Below, piece by piece: positions 1 through 31,004 of a stretch of DNA of 64,000 nt. The stretch spans positions 42,925 through 106,924 of the forward strand of contig MFRN01000035.1 of the NCBI GenBank assembly GCA_001784585.1, read 5' to 3'. This stretch comes from Candidatus Melainabacteria bacterium RIFCSPLOWO2_02_FULL_35_15. GTDB lineage: Bacteria > Cyanobacteriota > Vampirovibrionia > 2-02-FULL-35-15. The translations under genes were made by a program, and so were the position numbers. The first letter of the stretch is position 1; every line of letters starts with the position of its first letter. A model generated the notes under the pieces. That model had not been told where the DNA came from, made no database searches, and saw only the letters and a program-made list of their open reading frames with translations.

Positions 1-892
1 CTCTTAGTGCCTCTAAAGCAGCAGTAGTCAAATCATTTACTTCAATTAAACTACCACTGTCATCAGATGAAAACTCATCATTTATATCTGAATCAAGAGG
101 GACAAGAGCTTCAAATTCTTTTTCTGCTTCAACACTTACAACCCCTGCATCAACAGGATCAGTATCTGGTGCTGCCGAATCATCACCGGTAGTTTGTGCC
201 AGTAATTTTCTATTCTTCTTAGTAGTAGTATTGTTTGATGGAAGTTTCTGAGCTCTTACTTCTGTAAAGAATGCACCGTTATTACTTGTGGTTACTGATT
301 TATCTGAGATTTTATCTCCGCCTAAGTCTTCTACGGATACCACACCTGTTGTTTTTGTCTTAGCAGTACCTACAACAAGTGCCGGTGGTTCATATGTAAA
401 TGCATCGGTAGTAATGTTTAAGTCGCTGCCGTCAGATATTTTTAATTTATATTGATCACCGGGGAGTGAACTGGGTGAAACAGTAATTCCTGACTGGTTA
501 GTAATAGAAAATAAATTTACGACCAGGAACTTGCCGGATTTTTTCTTTAGTTTTTTGCTCTGTAATGTAACAGATTCAGCTGGTACTGTATAAGTTTTGG
601 TGGAGTCTACTGTTGAAGTTAAAGTAACAGTAAGTTTACTTACACCAGATTTTCTGACTTTAGCTAACTGATCCGGCAGAAGAGCTACGTTAGCATCATC
701 AGCCGTTGGTATTAAAACACTACCATATATAATAGCTTCTCCATCGTTACTTAGTACTTGTGTACTGCTTGTTTTTGGTTTTCCTTTCTTTCCTTTTGCT
801 GCATAACATTCCTGAGCAGTTAAACACTCAGAAGATAATAATGCAAGAACTAAAAATATCGAAATAAATTTTCTCACTGTTTTTCCTCCCAT
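1..892 (-). CDS. Secreted cysteine-rich surface protein, paralog of the 1129..4647 gene. Partial: the N-terminal ~297 codons are in the window and the C-terminal part runs off the window start.
   Basis: Reverse-strand translation from ATG (complement of 890-892) gives MGGKTVRKFISIFLVLALL... with a signal peptide. It is collinear with the N-terminal ~300 aa of the 1172-aa protein downstream. DNA at 200-890 is near-identical by eye to 3960-4647. No stop codon occurs before position 1. Confidence 0.75.
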   Translation of the reverse strand, partial: MGGKTVRKFISIFLVLALLSSECLTAQECYAAKGKKGKPKTSSTQVLSNDGEAIIYGSVLIPTADDANVALLPDQLAKVRKSGVSKLTVTLTSTVDSTKTYTVPAESVTLQSKKLKKKSGKFLVVNLFSITNQSGITVSPSSLPGDQYKLKISDGSDLNITTDAFTYEPPALVVGTAKTKTTGVVSVEDLGGDKISDKSVTTSNNGAFFTEVRAQKLPSNNTTTKKNRKLLAQTTGDDSAAPDTDPVDAGVVSVEAEKEFEALVPLDSDINDEFSSDDSGSLIEVNDLTTAALEALR

Positions 893-1060
893 AAAAAACT
901 AATCCCCGATAGTGTAAGATTACTAAGATTTCTCTACCCTCAGGTGGGACAAATATCACACTGGCTAGCCCTGAATTTTTTTCATTTACAGGTGATACAC
1001 GAATATTTATTGGAAAAAATTTATTTTGTTTAGGGATAAATGTTATTCCATAACCTTACA

Positions 1061-1110
1061 AATAAAAAAAAGCCCTTTATTTTTTATAAAGGGCTTTTAA
1101 TTTTTTTTCT
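1061..1110. terminator. Bidirectional rho-independent terminator between the two tandem paralogs
   Basis: Perfect 12-bp stem AAAGCCCTTTAT (1069-1080) / ATAAAGGGCTTT (1086-1097) with a 5-nt loop. It is flanked by A-runs upstream and T-runs downstream, so it forms a hairpin plus U-tract on either strand. It lies just 3' of the minus-strand gene ending at 1129. Confidence 0.7.
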
Positions 1111-1128
1111 TAGATTATTTTAATTAAC

Positions 1129-4100
1129 CTAAGGGCAGGGGCTTCCAGTGGGTTTACAAGTATTACTTGCACTGCAGAAGAAACTCCCTGCCGGACAATT
1201 TTGTCCGCCGCCTGAAGAAGGGCATGTAATTTGACATGTGCCATCTGGGCATTTAGTTTGCCCGGCTGGACACGGACAAGCAGCTAGTGTTGTCTGACAT
1301 GAGTTATCGGGACATCTTATCGGAGTAGCTTGTGGGCAAGGGCATGTAATCTGACATGTACCATCTGAGCATTTAGTTTGCCCGGCTGGACACGGACAAG
1401 CAGCCAGTGTTGTCTGACATGAGTTATCGGGACATCTTATCGGAGTAGCTTGTGGGCATGTATCTCCGCCACCGCCACTACTGCTTGTACTAGTGCATGT
1501 AATTTGACATGTGCCATCTGAGCATTTAGTTTGCCCGGCCGGACACGGACAAGCAGCCAGTGTTACCTGACATGAGTTATCAGGACACATGATTGGAGTA
1601 GCTTGTGGGCATGTACCGCCACTGCTTGTACTGGTGCACTCAAGCTGTGTCACTTTGCAGCTTCCATCAGGACATCTTATTGGAGTAGCTTGCGGGCATG
1701 TGCCGCCACTGCTTGTGCTTGCACACTCAAGCTGTGTTACTCTGCAGCTTCCATCAGGACATCTTATTGGAGTAGTTTGTGGACATGTACCGCCACTGCT
1801 TGTACTGGTGCACTCAAGCTGTGTCACTTTGCAGCTTCCATCAGGACATCTTATTGGAGTAGTTTGCGGGCATGTGCCGCCACTGCTTGTGCTTGCACAC
1901 TCAAGCTGTGTTACTCTGCAGCTTCCATCTGGACACTTGATTGGTTTGTCTTGTGGACATGTAGTTGATCCACATTCAGTTTGATTAAATACACACTTGC
2001 CATCAGGACACTTAAATTGTCCTAGTGGACATGCGCCACCACTGCTTGTGCTGGTGCACTCAAGCTGTGTTACTCTGCAGCTTCCATCTGGACACTTGAT
2101 TGGTTTGTCCGGTGGACAAGGACCACCGCCGATGCATTTTTGAGTAACAGGATCAAATTTCTGATCAGGTGGACATTCTCCTTTGCCACATTCTGCCTGA
2201 GAAGGTTTACATAAACCATCCGGACACTTTACAGGTTTATCTGGTGGGCATTGTCCACCGCCAAAGCCACCGCCAAAACATGGTTTACACTCTGGAGGAA
2301 TATCTCCAGTTGATCCGCCGAAACCAGAAGGTTGCGTACCGCCTGGCGTTTGTTCAAGAAGTTTTCTTACATATTGGCTGCATGAGGCAGGGCAATTGTC
2401 CTGGCCGCCTTTTCCTTTTTTACAACCTCCGCCTTCATCTCTGACAAGTCCTTGTCCAAATTTTTCACAAATTGGTAAACAAGCTTCTTGTCCATTTGAA
2501 AGTTTTCCTGGTTCATACTTATCAGGATCAGGGCATGATTTCTTACAACTTTCTACTGCAACATCAGTAGCAACCTTGTCAGAACCAAAATTAGCTGTTA
2601 AATCTTTACAAAGACAACTACGTAAGTCACCTCCAAGTGGAATTGGTCCAGGGCCACCAAATCCTCCCATACCACTACCAAAGCCGCCAAATTGTTGTGC
2701 AGCAAATGTTGTGCTTGTACAGCAACCTTTAGTAACTATGCCAGAACCAAAATCACAAACAGGCCTGCCACTTTTAGCGTCACATGTTTGATGGCACTTA
2801 CATACTTTACAATCCTGAGGAAATCCAAAACCGCCACCAGGGGCACCAGGACCACTGGGACCACCAGGGGTACCAGGACCGCCAGGGCCACCAGCAGTTG
2901 ATCCGCCAAATGTTTGTTCTAAGCCTGTAAATGAAGGTTTTCCAAACTGACTTTCACAATCTTTATGACAACGGGTTAGTACACAGAGTTGTCTGGCTAT
3001 GTCGTTTGGAGTAGTTGGCGCACTTTCACCAGGAGGAAAAAATCCACCCTGTAGTTTAGAAGGAACACAGAATTTTTTACCATTACCTGCATCACCAATA
3101 GCCCAGTCAGGACCAGGGTTTGTCGGGTCAGGAATACATTCAGAAGCTGGTACTCCGTCTTTTGCATCTATTTCAAAGCAGAATAAATCTCTTGGCGGTT
3201 TTTTTACAAAACATTGACCAGGGCCGCCCGGAGTGCTACCTGGTGACGGGCCAGATACTTGTGCTAATCGAGTTATTGGTCCTGGGCCAGCGGGGCCTCC
3301 TTGTGGGCCGCCACAAACACCAAATGGCTGAACACAATTTTTTAGAATGCTTGCAAACTTAGTACATTCTGGCGGAGGACAAACTGGTTTAGGACCTTTA
3401 GCATTTGGCAGTACAAACTTTTCATATACATCACAGGGACTGCCTTTTTCTTCTCCTTTGGTAGCATGCTTACAATAAACTTCTGCTATTTTTTCCAGAG
3501 GCAGTTTCTCAATGAATTCCTTTCCTTCAAAGTTACAAACACTAAAATATGTAGACTTAACATCATTTCCTAGTGCTGCATCAGGTTTATCACAACGATT
3601 TGCAAGCAATTTAACATCCGGACATGCAGCAGAAGGTGTAGGTAAACCACCACTGCTTGAAGTTGATGTGCCACCTGTAATATCATCTAATTTTTGTTTT
3701 ACTGCCTGATCGGCAATTTCGTTAAGTGCTTCTTCATCTCCTTCTGCTGCTGCTTTTAAATAATCGAGCTCTTGAGTCGTCTCTTCTGTTACTTCAATAG
3801 CTTCATTTTCTGAGATTGCTTCATTTGCGTCCGGGTCAGTGCTAAGAGGGACCAGTGCTTCTAGTTCTGCATCTTTATCCTCATCAATGTTTACAGCAAC
3901 AACTCCCGGTTCTGTATCATCTTCGAGTAAAGTATTACTTTCATCTTCAGTTTGTGCTGACAGTTTTCTATTCTTAGTAGTAGTAGTGTTTGAAGGAAGA
4001 TTTTTTGCCCTTACTTCTGTAAAGAATGCACCGTTATTACTTGTGATAACTGACTTATCTGAAATCATATCTCCTTCAAGATCTTCTACTGTTACTACAC

Positions 4101-4647
4101 CTGTTGATTTTGTCTTAGCAGTACCAACAACAAGTGCAGGCGGTTCATATGTAAATGAACTGGTAGTAATATTTATATCTTTTCCATCGGAAATTGTTAG
4201 TTTATATTGATCACCGGGAAGTGAACTGGGTGAAACAGTAATTCCTGACTGGTTAGTAATAGAAAATAAATTTACGACCAGGAACTTACCGGATTTTTTC
4301 TTTAGTTTTCTGTTCTGTACTGTAACTGACTCTGTAGGTACTGTATAAGTTTTTGTGGAGTCTAATGCTGAAGTTAAAGTAACAGTAAGTTTACTTACAC
4401 CAGATTTTCTGACTTTTGCCAACTGATTCGGTGGAAGAGCTACGTTAGCATCATCAGCTGTAGGTATTAAAATACTTCCATATATGGTTTGCTCACCATC
4501 GTTACTAAATACCTGAATGCTAGCTGATGTTTTACCTTTCTTCCCTTTTGCACTTGTTTCATTTGTCGTACAAAATTCAAAAGAAATAAAAGCAAGTGCC
4601 ACAACAAAAAATATCAAAATAAATTTTTTCACAGTTTTTCCTCCCAT
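1129..4647 (-). CDS. Large secreted cysteine-rich tandem-repeat protein (1172 aa). It has a signal peptide, two predicted beta-sandwich N-terminal modules, an acidic linker, a Gly/Pro low-complexity Cys-rich region, and C-terminal 29-aa and 40-aa Cys repeats.
   Basis: ORF track gives 1172 aa. The N-terminus MGGKTVKKFILIFFVVALAFISF is hydrophobic. The C-terminal half contains the unit CPDGSCRVTQLECTSTSSGGTCPQTTPIR repeated about 8 times, then CPCPAGQTKCSDGTCQIT-type units. An upstream RBS GGAGG is present at 4649-4660 (complement). Confidence 0.85.
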   Translation of the reverse strand: MGGKTVKKFILIFFVVALAFISFEFCTTNETSAKGKKGKTSASIQVFSNDGEQTIYGSILIPTADDANVALPPNQLAKVRKSGVSKLTVTLTSALDSTKTYTVPTESVTVQNRKLKKKSGKFLVVNLFSITNQSGITVSPSSLPGDQYKLTISDGKDINITTSSFTYEPPALVVGTAKTKSTGVVTVEDLEGDMISDKSVITSNNGAFFTEVRAKNLPSNTTTTKNRKLSAQTEDESNTLLEDDTEPGVVAVNIDEDKDAELEALVPLSTDPDANEAISENEAIEVTEETTQELDYLKAAAEGDEEALNEIADQAVKQKLDDITGGTSTSSSGGLPTPSAACPDVKLLANRCDKPDAALGNDVKSTYFSVCNFEGKEFIEKLPLEKIAEVYCKHATKGEEKGSPCDVYEKFVLPNAKGPKPVCPPPECTKFASILKNCVQPFGVCGGPQGGPAGPGPITRLAQVSGPSPGSTPGGPGQCFVKKPPRDLFCFEIDAKDGVPASECIPDPTNPGPDWAIGDAGNGKKFCVPSKLQGGFFPPGESAPTTPNDIARQLCVLTRCHKDCESQFGKPSFTGLEQTFGGSTAGGPGGPGTPGGPSGPGAPGGGFGFPQDCKVCKCHQTCDAKSGRPVCDFGSGIVTKGCCTSTTFAAQQFGGFGSGMGGFGGPGPIPLGGDLRSCLCKDLTANFGSDKVATDVAVESCKKSCPDPDKYEPGKLSNGQEACLPICEKFGQGLVRDEGGGCKKGKGGQDNCPASCSQYVRKLLEQTPGGTQPSGFGGSTGDIPPECKPCFGGGFGGGQCPPDKPVKCPDGLCKPSQAECGKGECPPDQKFDPVTQKCIGGGPCPPDKPIKCPDGSCRVTQLECTSTSSGGACPLGQFKCPDGKCVFNQTECGSTTCPQDKPIKCPDGSCRVTQLECASTSSGGTCPQTTPIRCPDGSCKVTQLECTSTSSGGTCPQTTPIRCPDGSCRVTQLECASTSSGGTCPQATPIRCPDGSCKVTQLECTSTSSGGTCPQATPIMCPDNSCQVTLAACPCPAGQTKCSDGTCQITCTSTSSSGGGGDTCPQATPIRCPDNSCQTTLAACPCPAGQTKCSDGTCQITCPCPQATPIRCPDNSCQTTLAACPCPAGQTKCPDGTCQITCPSSGGGQNCPAGSFFCSASNTCKPTGSPCP
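1200..2110. repeat. Coding tandem DNA repeats inside the 1129..4647 gene: about 3 units of 120 bp (roughly 1226-1585) followed by about 6 units of 87 bp (roughly 1594-2110).
   Basis: The 87-bp units alternate between two variants (gtaccgccactgcttgtactggtgcactcaagctgtgtcactttgcag versus gtgccgccactgcttgtgcttgcacactcaagctgtgttactctgcag), giving a 174-bp higher-order repeat. Units differ by only a few substitutions. Confidence 0.85.
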
Positions 4648-4934
4648 AAAGAAAATATCTTTTATAATGCTAACCTCTTAACTGCTAATAAGTGAAATAA
4701 ATGTCACACAAGATACATACTATATAACGCGACATAAATGCTAACGCATATTATGTCGCTATTTTATGGCGGATCTTCATTGGCGTTCGGGTTGTCGAAG
4801 GACAACCCTCACTTGTAACATTACTTAGGTCGCTGCGTATATATAAAGATTTTCATTATGAGGGATACAGATAATTACTAAAAAGTATTAATTTTTTTGT
4901 CAATTTTAGAAATAAAAGGAACAAAAGCTTACGC

Positions 4935-4944: not shown

Positions 4945-5366
4945 ATGAAGTTCCTCAAGCAGTTACGTTTTATTTATACATTTTATGCCAGGTTATTGGT
5001 AAGGAAAAATCTTGAAGGGATTTCTCCGGTATAAAGAAATGAGGAAAGTCCGGGCTCCATAGGGCTGGTTGCTTCGTAATGCGAAGTGCACGTAAGTGTG
5101 AGGAAAGTGCCACAGAAATGAAGACCGCCCCGTGAGATAATTTCATATCTCACGGGGTAAGGGTGCAACGGTGAGGTAAGAGCTCACCAGATTTTGCGGT
5201 GACGCAAGAACTAGGTAAACCCCGCTGAAGGTGCAAGGATAAGGTATAGGATTGAATCACAGTGGCCCGCTGCTCAATTCTGCCAAAGCCGCTTGAGGGT
5301 ATTGGTGACAATACTCCCAGATAGATAACTGCATAAACAAAACCCGGCTTATGAGGAACTTCATTC
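4945..5366 (+). ncRNA. rnpB: RNase P RNA, bacterial type A (M1 RNA)
   Basis: Universal P4 motifs GAGGAAAGTCCGGGCTCCATAGGGC (5041-5065) and ACAAAACCCGGCTTA (5336-5351) are present. A 13-bp P1 stem is formed by ATGAAGTTCCTCA (4945-4957) and TGAGGAACTTCAT (5352-5364), followed by a T-tract. Internal GNRA-type and conserved regions include GTAAGAGCTCACCAG. Length is about 420 nt. Confidence 0.9.
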
Positions 5367-5420
5367 TTTTTAATAACTTCAGGTACTCCATCAGCAAACC
5401 GGGCAGTCTATATAAAGGTA

Positions 5421-8248: not shown

Positions 8249-8268
8249 AGAAAAGGAGAAGTAAAGAC

Positions 8269-9303
8269 ATGCCATGGCATGTCTCAACAAATATGGGAGT
8301 AACTAAAGATATGCCATGGCATGTCTCAAATATGGGAGCAACTGTGACAGAAAAAAAAGAATCAATTGCAACAAGAGTTGCCTATGGAAAAGCACTCCTT
8401 GAGCTTGGGAAAGAAAATCCAAACATTGTAGTACTTGATGCAGATCTTTCCGGTTCTACGCAAACCAAATTCTTTGCGAAGGAATTTCCGGAAAGATTTT
8501 TTAATATGGGAATTGCAGAGCAAAACATGATAGGTGTTGCAGCCGGGTTATCAAGTACTGGCAAGATTCCTTTTGCAAGCAGCTTTGCAATGTTTGCATG
8601 TGGTCGTGCCTGGGAGTTTGTCAGAAACTCTGTTTGTCACAATATGTTTAATGTAAAAATTTGTGCAACACATGCAGGATTAACTGTAGGTGAAGATGGC
8701 GGCTCTCATCAGATTATTGAAGATCTGGCTATTATGAGGGCAATACCGCACATGACAGTTATTGTTCCTGCTGACGCTACTGAAGCAAAACTTGCTACAA
8801 GAGCTATTGCCAGCTTTTTTGGTCCTGTTTATATGAGACTTGGAAGATCAAATGTGCCGGTTTTATTTGATGAAAAAAAATTTGAGTTTAAAATCGGAAA
8901 AGCACAAATTATAAAAAGCGGGATTGATGTTTCTGTTTTTGCCTGCGGAGTAATGGTGAGCAGAGCTCTCTGGGCAGCTGAAATTTTGCAAAATGAAGGA
9001 ATAAGTACAGAGATTATAAATGTTTCTACTATTAAACCTCTTGATAAAGAAACTATTTTAGCCAGTGTACAAAAAACAGGTTGTGCAGTTACATGCGAAG
9101 AACATAATATCCATGGGGGACTTGGTGATGCTATTGCCTCTGTACTTACTGAAAATCATCCTATACCTATGAAAAAAACTGGTGTTATGGATCAATTCGG
9201 GCAAAGCGGAAAAAGTGATGAACTTCTTGTTCATTATGGATTAACTAAAGAAAAAATTGCTGAGGCTGCCAGAGAAGTTATTAAAAGGAAGTTAATAAAT
9301 TAG
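8269..9303 (+). CDS. Transketolase, C-terminal subunit (split transketolase). The start is ambiguous because of a 42-bp tandem duplication at the 5' end.
   Basis: Conserved motifs ATRVAYGKALLELG...VVLDADLSGST and the pyrimidine-binding/C-terminal domains are present. An RBS AAGGAGA lies upstream of ATG 8269. Alternative starts occur at 8311 and 8332. Confidence 0.85.
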   Translation: MPWHVSTNMGVTKDMPWHVSNMGATVTEKKESIATRVAYGKALLELGKENPNIVVLDADLSGSTQTKFFAKEFPERFFNMGIAEQNMIGVAAGLSSTGKIPFASSFAMFACGRAWEFVRNSVCHNMFNVKICATHAGLTVGEDGGSHQIIEDLAIMRAIPHMTVIVPADATEAKLATRAIASFFGPVYMRLGRSNVPVLFDEKKFEFKIGKAQIIKSGIDVSVFACGVMVSRALWAAEILQNEGISTEIINVSTIKPLDKETILASVQKTGCAVTCEEHNIHGGLGDAIASVLTENHPIPMKKTGVMDQFGQSGKSDELLVHYGLTKEKIAEAAREVIKRKLIN

Positions 9304-17721: not shown

Positions 17722-18075
17722 ATGAAGCTCTACCTTGACGAAAACATTTCACCACTTGTTGCTAAAAAACTTAGAGAAAAAGGATTTGATGTAATATCAG
17801 TGCACGAAAACAATACCCGGTCAAAAAGTGATATTGAACAGTTTGAACTTGCCATAAGAGAAAAAAGGGCCATAGTTACATATGATGTTATAGATTTTAC
17901 AGACTTAGCAAAAGGATATATTGCAAAGGTAAAACCGCATTCCGGGATAATTTTAGTAAGTAATAAAACCATTCCGCAGGGAAATTCGAAAAAACTTGCC
18001 GTTTCACTGGAAAAATTATTACACCATAAAGAAAAAGATTTTTTAGAGAACAGAATTGTGTATTTAACAAAATAA
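17722..18075 (+). CDS. DUF5615-family protein (Mut7-C/PIN-like putative toxin) paired with DUF433
   Basis: 117 aa. The N-terminus MKLYLDENISPLVAKKLREKGFDVISV matches DUF5615. The gene starts 3 bp after the DUF433 stop. Confidence 0.6.
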   Translation: MKLYLDENISPLVAKKLREKGFDVISVHENNTRSKSDIEQFELAIREKRAIVTYDVIDFTDLAKGYIAKVKPHSGIILVSNKTIPQGNSKKLAVSLEKLLHHKEKDFLENRIVYLTK

Positions 18076-19356
18076 GGTGTTGTCAAGCAGCCACTTCCAG
18101 AGAGGAATAAAACTGATTTTTGTCTTTTTTACTGTAACTTTTTTTTCGGTATCCCAGGTAATAATAGAAAGGTTTTTGCAATTAAGTTCTTCGCTGGCTT
18201 CTAAGAGAGAATTAATTTCTCTTTTTTCAGTATAAGGATCTTTAACATCATATGAAACCTGAATTAACTCTTTGATTTTTATACCTTTTTTCAACACAAA
18301 ATCAACTTCTTTTTGGTTTCTTGTTTTGTAATAAAAGAGATTCATATTAAGTTTACAACCTCTGTTTAAAAGTTCTATGAAGATTAGATTTTCAATAAGC
18401 TTGCCATAATTTTTAGAAGACTGAAATGCCTTTGCTTCAATAAAACCATTGTCAATCAGATAAATTTTCTTTGAGGCATTTATCTGTTCTTTTACTTTGT
18501 TTGAATATCTGTTCAGAGTAAAAGAAATATATGCTTCGCTTAAATATGATAGATAATTTTGAGCAGTATGTGTACTGTTAAAACCAAGAATATTTTTCAG
18601 CTTTGTATAACTTAACTCCTGACAAAAGTTTGATGCAGTATAGACGGACAGATCATACATTTTTTGTGTAAATCTTACATTGTATCTTTTAACTATATCT
18701 TTCAATAAAATAGCTTCATATAAAGTGTTTAAATATTGTTTTGGTTCAAAGTTTTTCAGAGTAACTTCAGGAAATCCTCCATGCAGGTTGTATTCACTTA
18801 AATAATTTAATATTTCACCTTTAATTTCAGGCAAATTAAATTCCTTTTTTGCAACAGAAACCTTTTTTGCAGTTAAAAATTCTCTAAAGCTGAATGGAAA
18901 TATTTCAACTGAAATATATCTTCCGGTTAATGATGTAGATAATTCTTTACTTAGCAGCTTTGCATTTGATCCGGTAAGAACGAGATTATAGCCCCTTCTC
19001 TGCAGCTTGTTTACAAACAGCTCCCAGTTTTTCAGGTTCTGGATTTCATCAAAAAAAATATATTTAGTCTTTCCATAAACTTCAACAAGACTTTTAATAA
19101 TTTCATCTGTATCAGTTACATCTAAAAGTTTTTCATCGTCAAAATTCAAATATGCAAAATTTGCATCTTCAAGTAAAAGAAAAGAGAAAACGGATTTCCC
19201 TGCTCTTCTTGGTCCTGTAATAACTTTAATCAAATCTGAAGAAAGATTTTTTTTAAACCCGGTGATTTTTTCCCGTTTTATAAAATCCTTTAAGAGTGTT
19301 TGTTCTTTTTCTTTTTTTTGTTGAAGTATGATTTCTTGTAGCATAGTATACTGCAC
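18064..19356 (-). CDS. AAA+ superfamily ATPase with C-terminal DUF4143 (COG1373-like)
   Basis: 430 aa. Walker A ITGPRRAGKS and Walker B IFFDEIQ are present. The domain organisation is typical of the ATPase/DUF4143 family. Confidence 0.7.
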   Translation of the reverse strand: MQYTMLQEIILQQKKEKEQTLLKDFIKREKITGFKKNLSSDLIKVITGPRRAGKSVFSFLLLEDANFAYLNFDDEKLLDVTDTDEIIKSLVEVYGKTKYIFFDEIQNLKNWELFVNKLQRRGYNLVLTGSNAKLLSKELSTSLTGRYISVEIFPFSFREFLTAKKVSVAKKEFNLPEIKGEILNYLSEYNLHGGFPEVTLKNFEPKQYLNTLYEAILLKDIVKRYNVRFTQKMYDLSVYTASNFCQELSYTKLKNILGFNSTHTAQNYLSYLSEAYISFTLNRYSNKVKEQINASKKIYLIDNGFIEAKAFQSSKNYGKLIENLIFIELLNRGCKLNMNLFYYKTRNQKEVDFVLKKGIKIKELIQVSYDVKDPYTEKREINSLLEASEELNCKNLSIITWDTEKKVTVKKTKISFIPLWKWLLDNTLFC

Positions 19357-21085: not shown

Positions 21086-22732
21086 ATGCAAAGCAATCTC
21101 ATTCGACTCGCAATACTCCTTGCCATGATACTTACAGTCACGACTCCTGTTGACTGTCATTCCAAAGATATATGGCGGTTTCTGTATCAGCCTCGTCAGC
21201 GGGTTGTAAAAACAATTGGCATATATAAAGATCAGATTTTCACTGGTACAGGAAATGGAGTTTTAGTCAGTAATGATAAAGGAAAAACATGGAATGATTT
21301 TGGTACAAATCAACTTTTAAAAGACAGCAGCGGTCTTTCATCTGTAAACTGGATTTATATTGACGGAGAAAATAAAAAGATTTATATTACTACAAATTTC
21401 GGTGCTTACTATTCTGATATAGCTAAGCCGGACTGGCACAGGTTCTTTGAAAATGTAAAAACTGAATCAAATGAAGTCAATTCTTTAACCGTAGATAAAA
21501 ATGAGGTCTACCTGAGTACTAATGACGGCTTTTGGATTTGTAACTTAAACCTTGGGAGCTGTGAAAGATTAAATCAGGGATTGGATCCCGATAATATTTC
21601 AGGAAACTTTCAGATTCTTTACGCATTAAAAATTAGTAATGAGTTGTATTTGGCAGCTTCAAACGGAATTTATAAACTTGATCACAGTAGAGCATCCTGG
21701 CACAATCTTTCGGAAGGAATCTACAGACTCCCTGACGGGAAAATAAATGCCAGGCATTTGCTTCTAAATAAAGGAAATATTTGGGCTGCATGCGGAACAG
21801 GTATTTATAAAAGTACAGATGGCGGGGAATTATGGAAAAATGTATCAGACGGAATCGGAAAAAATTCCGAAGGGTTTCAGGGAGCATTTTATCTTTTTCA
21901 ATCCGGAGATACTTTGTATTCTGCAACTGAAAATGGAATCTATTTTTATAGTGCAGAAAATGATTCATGGAATAATTTAACTTCTGGTATTAGAACGAAA
22001 GAAAATTCAAAAAATGTTTACTGGTTAGCACAGGTTGATAGTGATTTATATGCTGCTACTGATGAAGGCTTATTTGTTTTACAGGAACCAAAACAAGAAG
22101 AGCAAAATAGTAAATTAATCCTGAAAGGAAAAGTAGAAACTGATTTTGCAAACCTGGGAGAGCTGGAACCTGGTGTTATTGAAGTGCAAAAACAAGCATT
22201 AAAGTTTGCATCGTTACCTACAAATAATGATTATAAAAGATACAGACTGCAGGCAAGATTAAGAAATATTGTTCCAAGGCTTGGTGTAGATTTAAATACC
22301 ACAGGGACAAGTACAAATTATTATCAGATTGATAAAGGAATTTCAGCCAAGTCCTCGCTTAGTAATGATTTTAATGCAGATAAAACAAACAGATACCAGT
22401 ATGACGGAAGGGCATTTAAGCAGCTTTCAGTCCTGTGGAATACCAATCAGCTTTTTTATGATGATGAAATTAAAGATATATTGAGTCAGGCCAGATTAAC
22501 AGCAAATCTAAAAGAAAATCTTTTAGATGATGTAACCAGAATTTATTTTCAAAGAAGAAGACTGCAGCTGGAAAATTTAGTTTCTCCACCGAAAGATCAG
22601 ATAAGCAAGCTGTCTGCAGATCTTCAAATAGCTGAATTTACCGGTCAGCTTGACTCCAGGACAGGCGGCTGGTTTACAAAAGAAACTGAAAGAAGGAAAA
22701 GGCTGCAGGTAAATAATGCAAAATCACAATAA
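21086..22732 (+). CDS. Secreted beta-propeller protein with BNR/Asp-box-like repeats and a C-terminal coiled region
   Basis: 548 aa with a signal peptide MQSNLIRLAILLAMILTVTTPV. It carries repeated S/T-x-D-x-G-x-T/S-W motifs (SNDKGKTWND, STDGGELWKN, AENDSWNN, DHSRASWHN). Confidence 0.65.
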   Translation: MQSNLIRLAILLAMILTVTTPVDCHSKDIWRFLYQPRQRVVKTIGIYKDQIFTGTGNGVLVSNDKGKTWNDFGTNQLLKDSSGLSSVNWIYIDGENKKIYITTNFGAYYSDIAKPDWHRFFENVKTESNEVNSLTVDKNEVYLSTNDGFWICNLNLGSCERLNQGLDPDNISGNFQILYALKISNELYLAASNGIYKLDHSRASWHNLSEGIYRLPDGKINARHLLLNKGNIWAACGTGIYKSTDGGELWKNVSDGIGKNSEGFQGAFYLFQSGDTLYSATENGIYFYSAENDSWNNLTSGIRTKENSKNVYWLAQVDSDLYAATDEGLFVLQEPKQEEQNSKLILKGKVETDFANLGELEPGVIEVQKQALKFASLPTNNDYKRYRLQARLRNIVPRLGVDLNTTGTSTNYYQIDKGISAKSSLSNDFNADKTNRYQYDGRAFKQLSVLWNTNQLFYDDEIKDILSQARLTANLKENLLDDVTRIYFQRRRLQLENLVSPPKDQISKLSADLQIAEFTGQLDSRTGGWFTKETERRKRLQVNNAKSQ

Positions 22733-25133
22733 AATTATTTTTGTATTCCTTCTTTTGGTAGTAAGTTTTTTATTTTTGAAGGCACTGGCTTTTGTTATTC
22801 CCGATTTTGAAATTATTGGTAAAGATCCTGAAATTACAGAGATAGAAACAAATTTTCTGATCCCCGGGCAGAAGGTGAAAATTTACGGTAAAAACTTTTT
22901 TGAGACACCAAGATCTGCAAATAAAATCTGGATTAACAGTTATCCGGTCAGAGTTTTAAAAAGCGAAAAGAATTTTTTAGAAGTAATTGTTCCTAAGATT
23001 CCTCTCGGTAAGGGGAGGATAAGATTATATACAAATTATTTAGGATATAAAAGTAAAGAAACGTTTTACCCAAACGATAAAAGTAAATTAATAACAGTTA
23101 CATTTAATGGACCGGTACTTCAAAATACAGATACTGTTTCTGTAATCCCGGGCAGACGATTACTGATTTACGGAAAGTTTAATAAGAATAATCTGCTGTT
23201 TTGTAAAATTAATAATTATGAAATAAAATCAAAACCAGTCTCAGATGAAATTGTTGAGCTGTATCTGCCGGATTTATTACCACCGGGTCCATTTAGAATA
23301 AATTCTTTTTACAGGAAATATATTAAAGGCAGGGAATATATTGACTCTGCCCCTGGTAATAATTTGATTTTATTTAATGCGGAGAATGGCTTGCCGAACC
23401 GGATAAAAATAGTCTTACCGGAAAATAAACTTGATTCTGCCAATAAAGAATATCCTTACAGAGTTGAGTTAAGCTTTAGTAACTTTTTACAAACAGTCGA
23501 TATTACAAATTTTTCTAAGGTTGAATTAGCTTCCGGAGATGCATTTGATCTTGATACAGGAAAAAATATCCTGAGGCTTAAAAATACCGGATATGCTAAG
23601 TTAAAAGCTTCTTTTATATGGGTACCGGAAAATCTGCTCTTTAGTGATGAGATTACCGTTGTCTCTGAACTTCCCGGAAAACCTGATTTTGCAGAAGTTA
23701 TAATAAATGAGATTTTCCCGTTTCCCTCAGGTATTATTCCTGCTACTGATGCCAATATGAACGGTTTTGCAAGATCTGATGAAGATGAGTTTATTGAACT
23801 TAAAAATATTGCAAAGGAAAGATTCAATATTTCAGGATGTAGATTATTTACCGGAGAAAATAAAACAGCCTGTTATGAATTTTCTGAAAATACGGTTATT
23901 GAACCAGATAAATATTTGGTTGTTTTCGGAGAGCAGGCAAAGAATAAAAACCTGAATTTGATCAATACAGGAACTACTGTCGAATTTGTATGTGATGAGA
24001 TGACAATTGATTATACAGGCTACTCTCCGGGTAAAAGCGGTGATCCTTCCTGGCAAAGAAAAAGTGACTTAAGTGGTTTTGAAAAACATCCTGTTAGTTT
24101 GTTTTCTCCCGGAGGTCCACCGGCAAATTTAAATCAAAACACAACAGTACAAAATACTCCTGCACCTGCACCAGTCTTAATTACTGATTCAGTCAGTGAA
24201 TCTGTTCCGTTAACACTAAGAGAAATTTCAGTGTTACCTGTTGAATTGTTGTTTCAGGATCAAACTCCACAGCAGCTTTATGTAACCGGTGTGTATACAA
24301 ATGGAGAAAATAAAGAAATTACAAGTGAATCTGTTTACAAAATAACAGGTGGAGACAATGTAATTAAAGTTAATTCAGGCGGTCTTGTCTCCCCGTTTTC
24401 AAATGGTAGCGCCACAATAGAGATTGCATATCAGGATAAAACCATTGAAGTAATAGCAAATGTAAATCTTCTCAGCAAAGTTCAGCCTAAACAGCTGGTT
24501 ATAAATGAAGTGCTTGCAGCACCTACAGTTGATGTAAATAAGGATGGTATTTTTAAAAGCGATCAGGATGAATTTATTGAAGTGGTTAATATTTCCGGCG
24601 CAGCGTCAGATATAAGCGGATTACTTATTTCAGACAATACAAAGATTAGGCATACTGTACCTCCTGGTACTATTCTCCAAAACCTTGAATCTGTTGTAAT
24701 TTTTGGCGGAGGAAGTACAAATACTTTTTCTGATGTGCTTAAATCCCAGACTGCAAATACCGGAAGCCTGGGTTTAAACAATAGCGGAGCTGAGCAGGTT
24801 ACAGTTTCTACCAGTGACAATAAAATTATTGATCAGGTTTTATTTGATAACAATAATCTTCAGGGGGTTTCGCTAAATAGAACCGGTGATTTAAGTTTTA
24901 ATTTACTTAATCCACACGATAAGTTTTTAAAAGCTGTTGGCAAATATTCCCCGGGAATGAGAATTGACGGAACTTCTTTTACCTTATCTCCACAAGAAGG
25001 AGCAGATCTTTTAAAAGGTTCTTCATCTTCATCAAGCAGCTCATCATCGGGCAGTAGTTCTTCCAGCAGCAGTTCTTCCAGCAGCAGTTCTTCTGGTTCT
25101 GCTACATCATCTTCTTCCAGCAGCGGATTTTAA
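22716..25133 (+). CDS. Secreted/membrane-anchored protein with two lamin-tail domains (LTD), a Big_2-like Ig domain and a C-terminal poly-serine tail
   Basis: 805 aa with an N-terminal hydrophobic segment. LTD signatures IINEIFPFPSG...DEDEFIELKNI...ISGCRL and VINEVLAAPTVDVNKDG...DQDEFIEVVNISG...ISGLLISDN are present. The C-terminal ~50 residues are almost entirely Ser. It overlaps the upstream gene by 17 bp. Confidence 0.65.
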   Translation: MQNHNKIIFVFLLLVVSFLFLKALAFVIPDFEIIGKDPEITEIETNFLIPGQKVKIYGKNFFETPRSANKIWINSYPVRVLKSEKNFLEVIVPKIPLGKGRIRLYTNYLGYKSKETFYPNDKSKLITVTFNGPVLQNTDTVSVIPGRRLLIYGKFNKNNLLFCKINNYEIKSKPVSDEIVELYLPDLLPPGPFRINSFYRKYIKGREYIDSAPGNNLILFNAENGLPNRIKIVLPENKLDSANKEYPYRVELSFSNFLQTVDITNFSKVELASGDAFDLDTGKNILRLKNTGYAKLKASFIWVPENLLFSDEITVVSELPGKPDFAEVIINEIFPFPSGIIPATDANMNGFARSDEDEFIELKNIAKERFNISGCRLFTGENKTACYEFSENTVIEPDKYLVVFGEQAKNKNLNLINTGTTVEFVCDEMTIDYTGYSPGKSGDPSWQRKSDLSGFEKHPVSLFSPGGPPANLNQNTTVQNTPAPAPVLITDSVSESVPLTLREISVLPVELLFQDQTPQQLYVTGVYTNGENKEITSESVYKITGGDNVIKVNSGGLVSPFSNGSATIEIAYQDKTIEVIANVNLLSKVQPKQLVINEVLAAPTVDVNKDGIFKSDQDEFIEVVNISGAASDISGLLISDNTKIRHTVPPGTILQNLESVVIFGGGSTNTFSDVLKSQTANTGSLGLNNSGAEQVTVSTSDNKIIDQVLFDNNNLQGVSLNRTGDLSFNLLNPHDKFLKAVGKYSPGMRIDGTSFTLSPQEGADLLKGSSSSSSSSSSGSSSSSSSSSSSSSSGSATSSSSSSGF

Positions 25134-25322: not shown

Positions 25323-25937
25323 ATGTTATATTACAGACCTTTACTTTTAATAGCACTTTTTCTTTTATTTAATATTAAACCCTCATTAGCAATGGTAAGT
25401 GATGCTTATCCTTTACCAGTACCAGTTTGTGGAGATGGAATTATAATTACTCCGGATGAAGGATGTGATGATGTAAACACTGTGTCTGGAGACGGTTGTT
25501 CAGAGACCTGCCAGGTTGAAACTTCTGCTCCGGTTTGTCCTAATGGAATAGTAGAATCAGATGAACAGTGCGATGATAATAATAATACTGAAGAAGACGG
25601 TTGTTCATCACTCTGTATCAGTGAAGTATGCGGTGATGGCACTCTTCAAAGTAGCCTCGGTGAAGAATGTGATGATGGAAATACTGTAAATGGAGATACA
25701 TGTACTTCTTTGTGTATAACTGATACAGACGGAGATGGAGCAGGCGATGTGGTTGATAACTGTCAAGGCGTTTCGAACCCGGATCAAGCAGATACAGATG
25801 GTGATAGTTTAGGTGATGCTTGTGATACTCCTCTGGTATCTGAATGTGGAAATAACCAGTTAGAACAACCAGAAGAATGTGATGATGGAAATCTTACAGA
25901 TGGTGATGGCTGCTCTTCAGCATGCCAGTGGGAATAA
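25323..25937 (+). CDS. Secreted cysteine-rich repeat protein (CxxDDGNxxxGDGCSxxC-type repeats) with thrombospondin type 3-like Ca-binding repeats
   Basis: 204 aa with a signal peptide. There are 4 copies of the C..GDG....E.CDDGN...GD.C...C unit. A D-rich DTDGDGAGDVVDNCQGVSNPDQADTDGDSLGDACD segment is present. Confidence 0.65.
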   Translation: MLYYRPLLLIALFLLFNIKPSLAMVSDAYPLPVPVCGDGIIITPDEGCDDVNTVSGDGCSETCQVETSAPVCPNGIVESDEQCDDNNNTEEDGCSSLCISEVCGDGTLQSSLGEECDDGNTVNGDTCTSLCITDTDGDGAGDVVDNCQGVSNPDQADTDGDSLGDACDTPLVSECGNNQLEQPEECDDGNLTDGDGCSSACQWE

Positions 25938-29849: not shown

Positions 29850-31004
29850 CTATTTAAAAATCTTATTTATTCCATCTTGCCAATAATAGCATTGTATACC
29901 ATCAATTAACTTAGATTTTTTATCTTTGGATAAAACAAGCGCTTCAGATTTAGAAATGTCATTTATAAATTGCTTTAAAGTTTTAACTGCTCTATCATCA
30001 ATATTATCACTAGATTTTATCTCAATAAGCAGAGTTGTTTTACCAGGTCTCTCAACAATAAGATCAATTTCAGCATGATCTTTTGTTAGCAAGTATGAGA
30101 GTTTAAAATCCTTTTTAAAATATAGATTTAGTCTGTAAATTTCAGAAATAACCCAGTGTTCAAAAGATTTTCCATAAGCGTAAGTGTTTGGTAAGACGGT
30201 TTGAGTTAAAGTATTACATAGTGCTCTTTTAACTCCAGAATCAAAAAAGTAAAATTTAGGACTTTGACGTTGCTGTTTTCTGATAGACTTATGATAAGGT
30301 TCTAACAAAAACCCAAGTAATGTATCTTCTAAAATTTGATAGTAAGATTGGACTGTTTTAGTATCAGCTCCAACATCGCGTGCAATGTTAGTAAAATTAA
30401 CAATTTCACAATTGGATTGTGCTGAAATTTCTAAAAATTTTCTAAAAGGATCTAACTTTCTAATTATATGCTCTGCCCATATTTCTTCCTTTAAATAGGT
30501 TTGAGCATAGCTTCGCAGATATTCTTGCTTTTCTTTATCTGCTTTCAAATGAAAAATTTCTGGTAAACTACCCCAGTTTAAACAATGATTTAAATCAAAT
30601 TCTTTCTTTAGCTCAAGTGAGGTCATGGGATGCATGTAATTTACAAAAGCTCTTCCTGCTAATAAATTTGCACTTCCATATTTTAATTTTCTTGCACTTG
30701 AGCCGGTTAAAGCAAACCTTATATTTGTTGTTTCAATAAGGTGATGAACAATATCTAAAAGTTTAGGTACTTTTTGAACTTCATCGATAACAACCCAAGA
30801 TATCTTTTCCTTTGACATAATTTGTTCTTTAAAACTATTAGGTCGCTTTGAAAGTTCATCTTCTAGCTGTGGATCCAGCAAATCAAACCATAAAGTATTT
30901 TTTTTTGCAAAGAGCTGTTTTAAGAAGGTGGATTTTCCAGTGCCTCTTGCTCCAAAAAGAAAGAAGCTTCTTGATAAAGTTGGTTTGATTAGTCGTTGGA
31001 ACAT
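29850..31004 (-). CDS. AAA+ superfamily ATPase with DUF4143 (paralog of 18064..19356)
   Basis: 384 aa. Walker A LFGARGTGKSTF and Walker B VVIDEVQ are present. Domain order matches the other copy. Confidence 0.7.
   Translation of the reverse strand: MFQRLIKPTLSRSFFLFGARGTGKSTFLKQLFAKKNTLWFDLLDPQLEDELSKRPNSFKEQIMSKEKISWVVIDEVQKVPKLLDIVHHLIETTNIRFALTGSSARKLKYGSANLLAGRAFVNYMHPMTSLELKKEFDLNHCLNWGSLPEIFHLKADKEKQEYLRSYAQTYLKEEIWAEHIIRKLDPFRKFLEISAQSNCEIVNFTNIARDVGADTKTVQSYYQILEDTLLGFLLEPYHKSIRKQQRQSPKFYFFDSGVKRALCNTLTQTVLPNTYAYGKSFEHWVISEIYRLNLYFKKDFKLSYLLTKDHAEIDLIVERPGKTTLLIEIKSSDNIDDRAVKTLKQFINDISKSEALVLSKDKKSKLIDGIQCYYWQDGINKIFK

Follow-up and report, generated by a model that had tools for sequence, protein, structure and literature searches.

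Which kind of protein is encoded by the two adjacent genes at the start of this stretch of DNA, and by which processes do such genes vary? The stretch, hereafter called the window, comprises 64,000 nucleotides of contig MFRN01000035.1 (positions 42,925 to 106,924 of the forward strand) from Candidatus Melainabacteria bacterium RIFCSPLOWO2_02_FULL_35_15. Melainabacteria (Vampirovibrionia) are non-photosynthetic and form the sister group of cyanobacteria; to our knowledge, their cell surface is almost entirely uncharacterized. An earlier examination of the nucleotide letters alone (the sequence-only reading) had described the two genes, termed A and B here, as encoding secreted cysteine-rich proteins with repetitive C-termini. 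Our analysis leads to an account in which we place a fair but not a high degree of confidence: the tandem paralogs A and B belong to a small family of large, Sec-exported, disulfide-rich proteins that combine a conserved base with a variable C-terminal array, and that may act at the cell surface as adhesins or matrix proteins.

Genes A and B are tandem paralogs

Gene A is a complete coding sequence for 1172 amino acids (1129..4647, minus strand; open reading frame call). Its product is identical in sequence to NCBI entry OGI13234.1, which is annotated as 'hypothetical protein A3I68_02270' from a Candidatus Melainabacteria metagenome-assembled genome (MAG) and is encoded there on a contig of 117,779 bp. 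Gene B lies on the same strand and is cut by the window edge, such that only its 5' part is present (1..892, minus strand; 297 codons translated from the ATG at 892). Contig L002, a near-identical contig from another sample, carries the same pair of genes, and there gene B reaches at least 963 amino acids, with no amino acid mismatches to the window copy over the 292-residue overlap. Its architecture is that of gene A except at the C-terminus, which consists of 42-bp GGQFGPGGFGPNTS repeats (L002 6990-7137) and lacks cysteine units.

The proposal that A and B are same-strand tandem paralogs is borne out by these reading frames and by a blastn match of 216-898 to 3971-4654 (E=0). The match begins a few bases 5' of the start codon and extends to approximately codon 230. 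High similarity was thus correctly recognized, but the original figure of about 90% DNA identity is slightly too high, as identity is 84.0% over 695 bp and 87% in the best ungapped 300-bp block. At the protein level, identity is 68% over 305 amino acids and 85% over residues 36-230. A consensus scan, the only method applied to this feature, identified a terminator-like hairpin with a 13-bp stem and a T run (1068-1098, minus strand) located ~30 bp past the gene A stop codon. Because this hairpin lies between the two genes, A and B are probably separate transcripts. A family-profile scan of the window revealed no further family members besides these two.

Residues 1-33 of gene A (4549..4647, minus strand) read directly as a signal peptide, and residues 7-25 form a helix in the structural model described below. 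The signal peptide has an n-region (KTVKK) and a hydrophobic core (residues 9-23), and members throughout the family have a conserved Lys-rich stretch just after it. The likely signal peptidase I site falls between TSA and KG, where A33 is invariant in a five-sequence alignment and K34 is invariant in a seven-sequence alignment. We rejected a lipoprotein assignment because Cys26 is outside any lipobox and is retained by a single sequence out of 44.

Members and distribution of the family

A profile built from five members was searched against 1.84 billion cluster representatives, yielding 71 proteins at E<1e-3, of which 55 pass E<1e-10 and 39 pass E<1e-30, while word-based searches yielded few relatives. 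The sequence-only reading had staked itself on there being more than a single family member, and the 55 clusters at E<1e-10 agree with this. Among contigs representing one genome per species, the two most conserved peptide patterns of the family were found only in Candidatus Melainabacteria bacterium RIFCSPHIGHO2_02_FULL_34_12, at two separate loci. A family-profile scan of metagenomes added thirteen more loci, and no close relatives were found in JGI metagenomes. Tandem pairs of family genes are present in the window and L002 and also at L007, L013 and L014.

Most full-length members comprise 1000-2200 amino acids, and every one of them has a common base made of the signal peptide, a beta-sandwich region, a small strand/helix subdomain and a core of ~450 amino acids with ~30 conserved cysteines, the loops of which bear lineage-specific low-complexity inserts. 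Profile A1 recovers the order of signal peptide, beta-sandwich region and ~30-Cys core in both A and B, with scores of 1299 bits for gene A (positions 2-966), 451 bits for the gene B fragment and 1016 bits for the L002 copy of gene B (positions 2-847). C-termini, in contrast to the shared base, differ by member and include four-Cys arrays, Gly/Pro/Gln repeats, DUF4215, fn3, Laminin_G_3 and CBM_14. B-type members end in Gln/Pro/Gly-rich tandem repeats rather than in cysteine units, as seen for gene B and for P0002 (L001 10001-13042). The latter carries a QGFPQGQPQ repeat (27 bp x 8.8 copies) and 36-bp repeats in the loops of its core domain.

DUF4215 (PF13948) resembles the gene A array in being a cysteine-rich repeat of exported bacterial proteins, and it occupies the C-terminus of three family members. 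However, its consensus (CGDG...EECDDGN) is unlike the gene A unit, and genes A and B have no DUF4215 match in Pfam. Literature searches on cysteine-rich, secreted or disulfide proteins of Melainabacteria/Vampirovibrionia, or on the motif CPDGSC, returned nothing relevant. The family is small and lineage-restricted, and in the libraries and literature searched the family, its cysteine-rich core and its repeat unit are undescribed. The kind of gene is nevertheless familiar, namely a repeat-bearing exported family in which unequal recombination and conversion between paralogs drive evolution.

Predicted structure of the conserved base

AlphaFold2 (AF2) was run on gene A residues 1-810 with a 48-sequence alignment, giving a mean predicted local distance difference test score (pLDDT) of 77 and a predicted template modelling score (pTM) of 0.69. 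A full-length run with 7 sequences modelled only the first N-terminal domain. The N-terminal beta-sandwich region (residues ~42-215; 4003..4524, minus strand) is the most conserved part of the family, with pLDDT values of 89-97 over residues 41-220 and with invariant columns. For this region, Foldseek searches of PDB and BFVD returned only weak matches to tandem Ig-like domains (E 4e-3 to 0.1). Together with the signal peptide, this N-terminal anatomy is consistent with what the sequence-only reading had described.

Two further descriptions did not survive structural prediction. A stretch that had been called an acidic linker (residues 246-324; 3676..3912, minus strand) is largely predicted to fold into two strands and three helices, with AF2 block means of 76-95 over residues 241-320. 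The stretch thereafter, originally termed a collagen-like Gly/Pro region studded with cysteines, appears instead to be a folded, conserved alpha/beta core domain (residues ~342-791; 2275..3624, minus strand) with variable loops. This reassignment follows from the conservation of the cysteines, from the replacement of the loops in homologs and from the AF2 model, in which most 10-residue blocks of the core score between 80 and 96. Residues 1-810 contain 37 cysteines. For 30 of these, 70% or more of the family members have the cysteine, and for many the share is 95-100%. Neither a fold search (Foldseek) nor a family-profile search of the PDB sequence set revealed a PDB counterpart of the core, and no Pfam domain covers the shared part in any family member.

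The Gly/Pro runs correspond to short loops within the core that are predicted to be disordered (pLDDT<50). Loop 1 spans residues 446-478 (3214..3312), loop 2 spans residues 576-608 (2824..2922) and carries ~7 GXP-like triplets, and the Gly-rich loop 3 spans residues 650-663 (2659..2700), all on the minus strand. Tandem Repeats Finder (TRF) reports periods of 9, 18 and 27 at 2833-2894, within loop 2. At the same alignment positions, homologs have Gln/Gly/Pro-rich loops (P0002) or acidic loops (P0003). Gene A does share short Gly-X-Pro-like runs with collagen, such as GGPGGPGTPGGPSGPGAPGGG at residues ~583-603, but these triplets are few and interrupted, and they reside in loops that homologs replace with acidic or Gln-rich ones. 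The collagen triple-helix repeat (PF01391) was rejected on the grounds that Pfam gives no match, that the longest run has ~7 interrupted triplets and that the runs are disordered loops in a folded domain.

The C-terminal cysteine array of gene A

Residues 800-1172 of gene A (1132..2250, minus strand) form an array of four-Cys mini-modules, which a regular-expression parse resolves into 10 units of the form CPxxxPx[KR]CPD[GN]xCx6C and 3 shorter half-units of the form CPAGQTKCxDGTCQITC. The cysteine spacing is C-x6/7-C-x4-C-x6-C in units and C-x6-C-x4-C-x3-C in half-units, and TSTSSGG-type spacers separate most units. One variant unit, CPLGQFKCPDGKCVFNQTEC, has a first loop of C-x6-C. Gene A encodes 93 cysteines in total (7.9%), and 57 of these are in residues 806-1172, such that the array is ~15% cysteine. 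The sequence CPC occurs once after each of the last three units, and dense CxC/CC clusters are otherwise absent from the array.

The tandem repeats of 87 and 120 bp, and the 174-bp higher-order organization of the former, were confirmed by TRF, by a repeat-family search and by the identities between copies. The 87-bp repeats occupy 1579..1963 (minus strand), where TRF reports 4.2 copies of 87 bp at 1579-1944 (88% matches) and describes the same array as 2.2 copies with a period of 174 bp (93% matches). Identity is 97% between copies 174 bp apart but 88% between neighbours at 87 bp, and the higher-order repeat is therefore real. The 120-bp repeats (1218..1610, minus strand) correspond to double units of 40 amino acids, which arise because three units each pair with the half-unit that follows. 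TRF places 2.0 copies at 1218-1458 (96% matches; the pair is 96-97% alike), and a third copy at 1491-1610 is 90% identical. The gene A array consists of a four-Cys unit of 21 amino acids whose amplification, as seen in the DNA, is recent.

These units had not been recognized as belonging to any described repeat family, and this still holds after profile searches and structure prediction were carried out as had been recommended. Pfam and NCBIfam searches of A and B returned a sub-threshold CD24 low-complexity match alone, no PDB sequence matches the array, and AF2 models it with pLDDT<40.

The closest resemblance is to the N-terminal lobe of LDL-receptor class A (LA) modules (PF00057). Gene A units have the spacing C-x6/7-C-x4-C-x6-C, in which CPLGQFKCPDGKCVFNQTEC matches LA spacing exactly, and they likewise have a hydrophobic residue followed by K/R-C-x-D/N-G-x-C-[VI]. 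However, they contain four cysteines rather than six, end at the fourth, and lack both the C-terminal lobe and the DxSDE calcium cage. Ldl_recept_a has no match in gene A at E<=1 and none in the array, or in the outside repeat proteins considered below, at E<=10. An hhalign comparison of the unit with seven LA modules, entered by hand, gave only 39.6% probability with 15 columns in register. Judged from these patterns, the relationship is one of resemblance and not of membership.

Copy number of the units differs between two assemblies

The proposal that the array expands and contracts is supported by the comparison of the window with L002, which is a comparison of two assemblies only. A global alignment over 5.2 kb contains ~10 single-nucleotide polymorphisms and exactly two structural differences. 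One is a 159-bp segment (53 codons, two units; 1960..2118, minus strand) that is present in the window and missing from L002, as defined by the global alignment and the protein parse. The other is one additional 87-bp unit in L002 at ~1852. Both indels are in frame and reside inside the array, which at the protein level holds ten units in the window and nine in L002. In these two assemblies, whole units of the array have been gained or lost between near-identical populations.

There is an appreciable, if minority, chance that this heterogeneity is an assembly artefact, in which units of 87 or 174 bp were collapsed or mis-joined at an invariant locus. Contig L002 looks like the product of a short-read metagenome assembly, judging from its name prefix (k141), and it ends within the 42-bp repeat of gene B, as is common in assemblies. 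The array units are 88-97% identical, and just two alleles can be compared. On the other side, each of the two indels corresponds exactly to whole units, keeps the reading frame and does not disturb the cysteine pattern. The 159-bp segment also includes the distinctive unit CPLGQFKCPDGKCVFNQTEC, which a collapse is unlikely to remove because it is not a near-identical repeat. Moreover, other family genes have DNA tandem repeats of their own (27-78 bp), and the 21-residue unit, found in 1-8 copies in nine other family members, has been amplified separately in P0019 (with a two-unit higher-order repeat) and in P0028. These independent amplifications indicate that such arrays change over time, in keeping with a real difference in copy number.

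Gene conversion between the paralogs

The sequence-only reading had also invoked gene conversion between the paralogs. P0002, which is a single copy at the syntenic locus of a related genome and adjoins genes for CN-hydrolase, tryptophanyl-tRNA synthetase (TrpRS) and transketolase, provides a point of reference. In residues 36-230, synonymous divergence (dS) between A and B is 0.44 versus 0.94 between B and P0002. This order is reversed downstream, with dS(A,B) of 1.28 versus dS(B,P0002) of 0.52 in residues 231-335, and 1.07 versus 0.57 in residues 336-445. Because B is far nearer to P0002 than to A across residues 231-445, the split between A and B predates speciation.

Three-way site patterns show the same reversal. 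In codons 61-180, sites at which A and B agree but differ from P0002 outnumber those at which B and P0002 agree but differ from A by 54 to 12, and in codons 211-450 the corresponding counts are 51 and 170 (Fisher's exact p=7e-18). Distances were also computed among six sequences (A, B, P0002, L010, L015 and L003). Within codons 240-400, B clusters tightly with P0002 and L010 (p-distances 0.11-0.22) and the distance of A from all of them is 0.42-0.45, whereas in codons 61-180 the A-B distance is 0.10 (0.17 at third positions) and B is 0.16-0.22 from its orthologs. The signal past codon 450 is mixed.

A and B are thus closest relatives in one segment and not in the next, as the conversion proposal predicts. 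The simplest reading of these patterns is that a tract of ~360 bp or more was converted between the tandem paralogs after speciation, covering approximately codons 61-180 of gene A (4108..4467, minus strand) with a partner at ~353-712 in gene B. By the same distances, the remainder of A and B belongs to two old paralog lineages. A formal alternative is that the rest of gene A was replaced by a divergent family member, which would likewise be recombination among paralogs.

The same unit in proteins outside the family

A search with the array identified 34 proteins outside the family (P0074-P0107) that consist almost wholly of the 21-residue unit and contain 13-15% cysteine, with phmmer E values down to 1.5e-38. 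Position by position, they favour the same residues as the family units (P2, P6, [IVY]7, [KR]8, [PS]10, D11, G12, [ST]13, [VA]15, [DE]20), and the pattern CP-x3-P-[IVY]-[KR]-C-[PS]-D-G-[ST]-C-[VA]-x-[ST]-x2-[DE]-C is common to them and to gene A. Unlike gene A, however, they lack the N-terminal region and the cysteine-rich core of the family. Their repeat units have no Pfam match even at E<=10, and in two of the proteins a flanking EGF-like domain is the only one detected.

On one contig that encodes such a protein, gene calls are sparse and half of a NECAP/DUF1681 domain is present, which is what an intron-split eukaryotic gene would be expected to give. The outside contigs look eukaryotic, and the outside repeat proteins are probably eukaryotic. 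Apicomplexan 'cysteine repeat modular proteins' were dropped as candidates because Pfam would have detected their repeats, which are GCC2/GCC3 domains according to the title of PMC9843837. As a separate observation, the outside loci include L008 and L009, and one outside cluster, P0079, has 68 members, with individual members on as many as 41 contigs, which reach 145 kb in length. This abundance indicates that the cluster derives from a common organism.

A DsbA-like gene adjoins some family genes

At seven loci, a divergently oriented gene for a DsbA-like thioredoxin-fold protein with a CPFC motif is located directly upstream of the family gene. These genes are at L003 9014-9763, L007 3122-3865, L013 3090-3821, L014 4883-5623, L017 5024-5782, L019 3624-4361 and L022 458-1186, all on the minus strand. 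The encoded protein comprises ~240 amino acids and has its own signal peptide. No other conserved neighbour was found across the family loci, and in the reference Melainabacteria MAG the upstream neighbours of the two family copies are unrelated to each other. A gene for an FKBP-type isomerase is also close by in L003 and L007.

Possible functions

We hypothesize that the cysteines of A and B form disulfides after Sec export, as suggested by the signal peptide, the regular cysteine spacing and the DsbA-like neighbour. The conserved base would hold the protein at or in the cell envelope. In such a surface adhesin or matrix protein, the variable C-terminal array would be either a rigid, protease-resistant stalk or the part that binds a ligand, and its length and composition would vary by unequal recombination. 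From this architecture we infer a surface or adhesin function. Streptococcal alpha C/Rib proteins and Neisseria Opa/pilS-type systems are examples of repeat-bearing bacterial surface proteins in which unequal recombination and gene conversion among paralogs create variation. Our locus resembles them in its in-frame repeats, the copy number of which differs between near-identical assemblies, and in its tandem or multiple paralogs with a conversion tract. However, A and B are unrelated to these systems in sequence and in domains, and their repeats are disulfide mini-modules from a diderm, non-pathogen lineage.

Several observations weigh against this account. Searches of A and B with Pfam and NCBIfam, for a lipobox and, by eye, for a C-terminal sorting motif revealed no outer membrane secretion or anchoring signal. 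The lipoprotein, autotransporter, type IX secretion system (T9SS) C-terminal domain, PEP-CTERM and LPXTG classes are all without a match, and the gene A C-terminus reads ...CKPTGSPCP. With no such signal found, we can only infer surface exposure in a diderm, and the protein could be periplasmic instead. The array, for which a stalk or binding role is proposed, is modelled at low confidence in the full-length AF2 run. No DsbA-like gene is present in the window, such a gene occurs at only 7 of the ~17 loci with usable upstream sequence, and the association may reflect synteny among related genomes instead of functional coupling. Lastly, the copy-number difference comes from one comparison, between a MAG contig and L002, and near-identical repeats misassemble easily.

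Other functions have been considered on the same evidence. We think it rather unlikely, though deserving of attention, that these are structural envelope or matrix proteins and not adhesins, in which intermolecular disulfides would build a sheath, a cyst-like wall or an extracellular matrix. The high cysteine content and conserved 30-Cys core would suit such a role, as would the presence of several copies per genome and the lack of a Pfam-recognizable ligand-binding domain in A and B. Elasticity would come from the Gly/Pro(/Gln) loops and, in gene B, from the GPGG-type repeats, and the low-complexity Gly/Pro/Gln loops together with C-terminal repeats such as GGQFGPGGFGPNTS (gene B) and QGFPQGQPQ (P0002) are in favour of this reading. 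However, the even cysteine spacing suggests disulfides within modules, polymerisation is supposition only, and some members end in Laminin_G_3, CBM_14 or fn3, which are typical binding domains. The occurrence of Laminin_G_3 and CBM_14 (peritrophin-A) in some members also favours the idea that the family mediates contact with eukaryotes, through a CPxxxPxKCxDGxC unit of 21 amino acids that was acquired from or donated to them and that now serves attachment to prey or hosts. The lineage includes the algal predator Vampirovibrio, and both the 34 outside proteins that share the position-specific consensus and the outside contig with its half NECAP/DUF1681 domain speak for this idea. We nevertheless judge it improbable, as short cysteine-rich motifs can converge, a predatory or host-associated lifestyle is undocumented for this MAG, and the direction of transfer is not inferable.

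A metallothionein-like periplasmic protein, with cysteines as thiolate ligands for metal, would account for a cysteine content of 7.9% overall and ~15% in the array, and yet it is very hard to reconcile with the remaining features. A signal peptide and a DsbA gene that recurs next to the family genes both suggest that the cysteines are oxidised. Small disulfide modules typically look as these units do, with four cysteines at regular intervals and conserved Pro, Asp and Gly between them. Dense CxC/CC clusters like those of metallothioneins are also missing from the array, and proteins of 1000-2200 amino acids with a folded core are unlike them. Returning to the exported, disulfide-rich surface protein that we favour, its boldest extension would be that the ~450-residue, 30-Cys core is a new disulfide-rich fold, that the 21-residue unit is an undescribed mini-module shared between Melainabacteria and protists by horizontal transfer, and that the two together form fast-evolving adhesins for attachment to eukaryotic cells. 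We regard this extension as a long shot.

What stands out is the confidently modelled cysteine-rich core with no Pfam or PDB counterpart, the DsbA-like association and the occurrence of the four-Cys module on contigs of probable eukaryotic origin. In an uncultured bacterium, the locus also illustrates compactly two repeat-driven processes, unit gain and loss and paralog gene conversion. If A and B do prove to be adhesins on the cell surface, they could mediate contact between cells or with prey, and if they do not, the family still merits a structure and an entry in Pfam. From what is known so far, this is an interesting yet unsurprising type of gene.

Other features of the window

The apparently empty 830-bp stretch upstream of gene A is filled by a bacterial class A RNase P RNA (5013-5367, plus strand; 202.8 bits, full-length model match), and no tRNA was found in the window. 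The remainder is unremarkable bacterial chromosome, with genes for CN-hydrolase, TrpRS, a split transketolase, acyl-CoA dehydrogenase, phosphoenolpyruvate carboxykinase, phosphofructokinase, glyceraldehyde-3-phosphate dehydrogenase and 2-oxoacid:ferredoxin oxidoreductase. Like the product of gene A, the TrpRS encoded nearby is a protein of a Melainabacteria MAG. An AdoCbl-II (cobalamin) riboswitch (57879-57953, plus strand; 47.9 bits) is located just upstream of an open reading frame at 57989-59734 that has no Pfam match.

A second small, secreted, cysteine-rich protein of 204 amino acids (7.9% Cys) is encoded at 25323-25937 on the plus strand. It carries four DUF4215 repeats and a thrombospondin type-3 repeat, and its gene comes after those for a sortilin/BNR-like propeller protein (21086-22732) and an LTD-domain protein (22716-25133). 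Two genes for AAA_14 + DUF4143 ATPases lie within 12 kb of each other, at 18064-19356 and 29850-31004, both on the minus strand. Finally, a 42-bp tandem repeat of 2.2 copies (8255-8343) at the start of the gene for the C-terminal half of transketolase gives this protein a duplicated MPWHVS... N-terminus.

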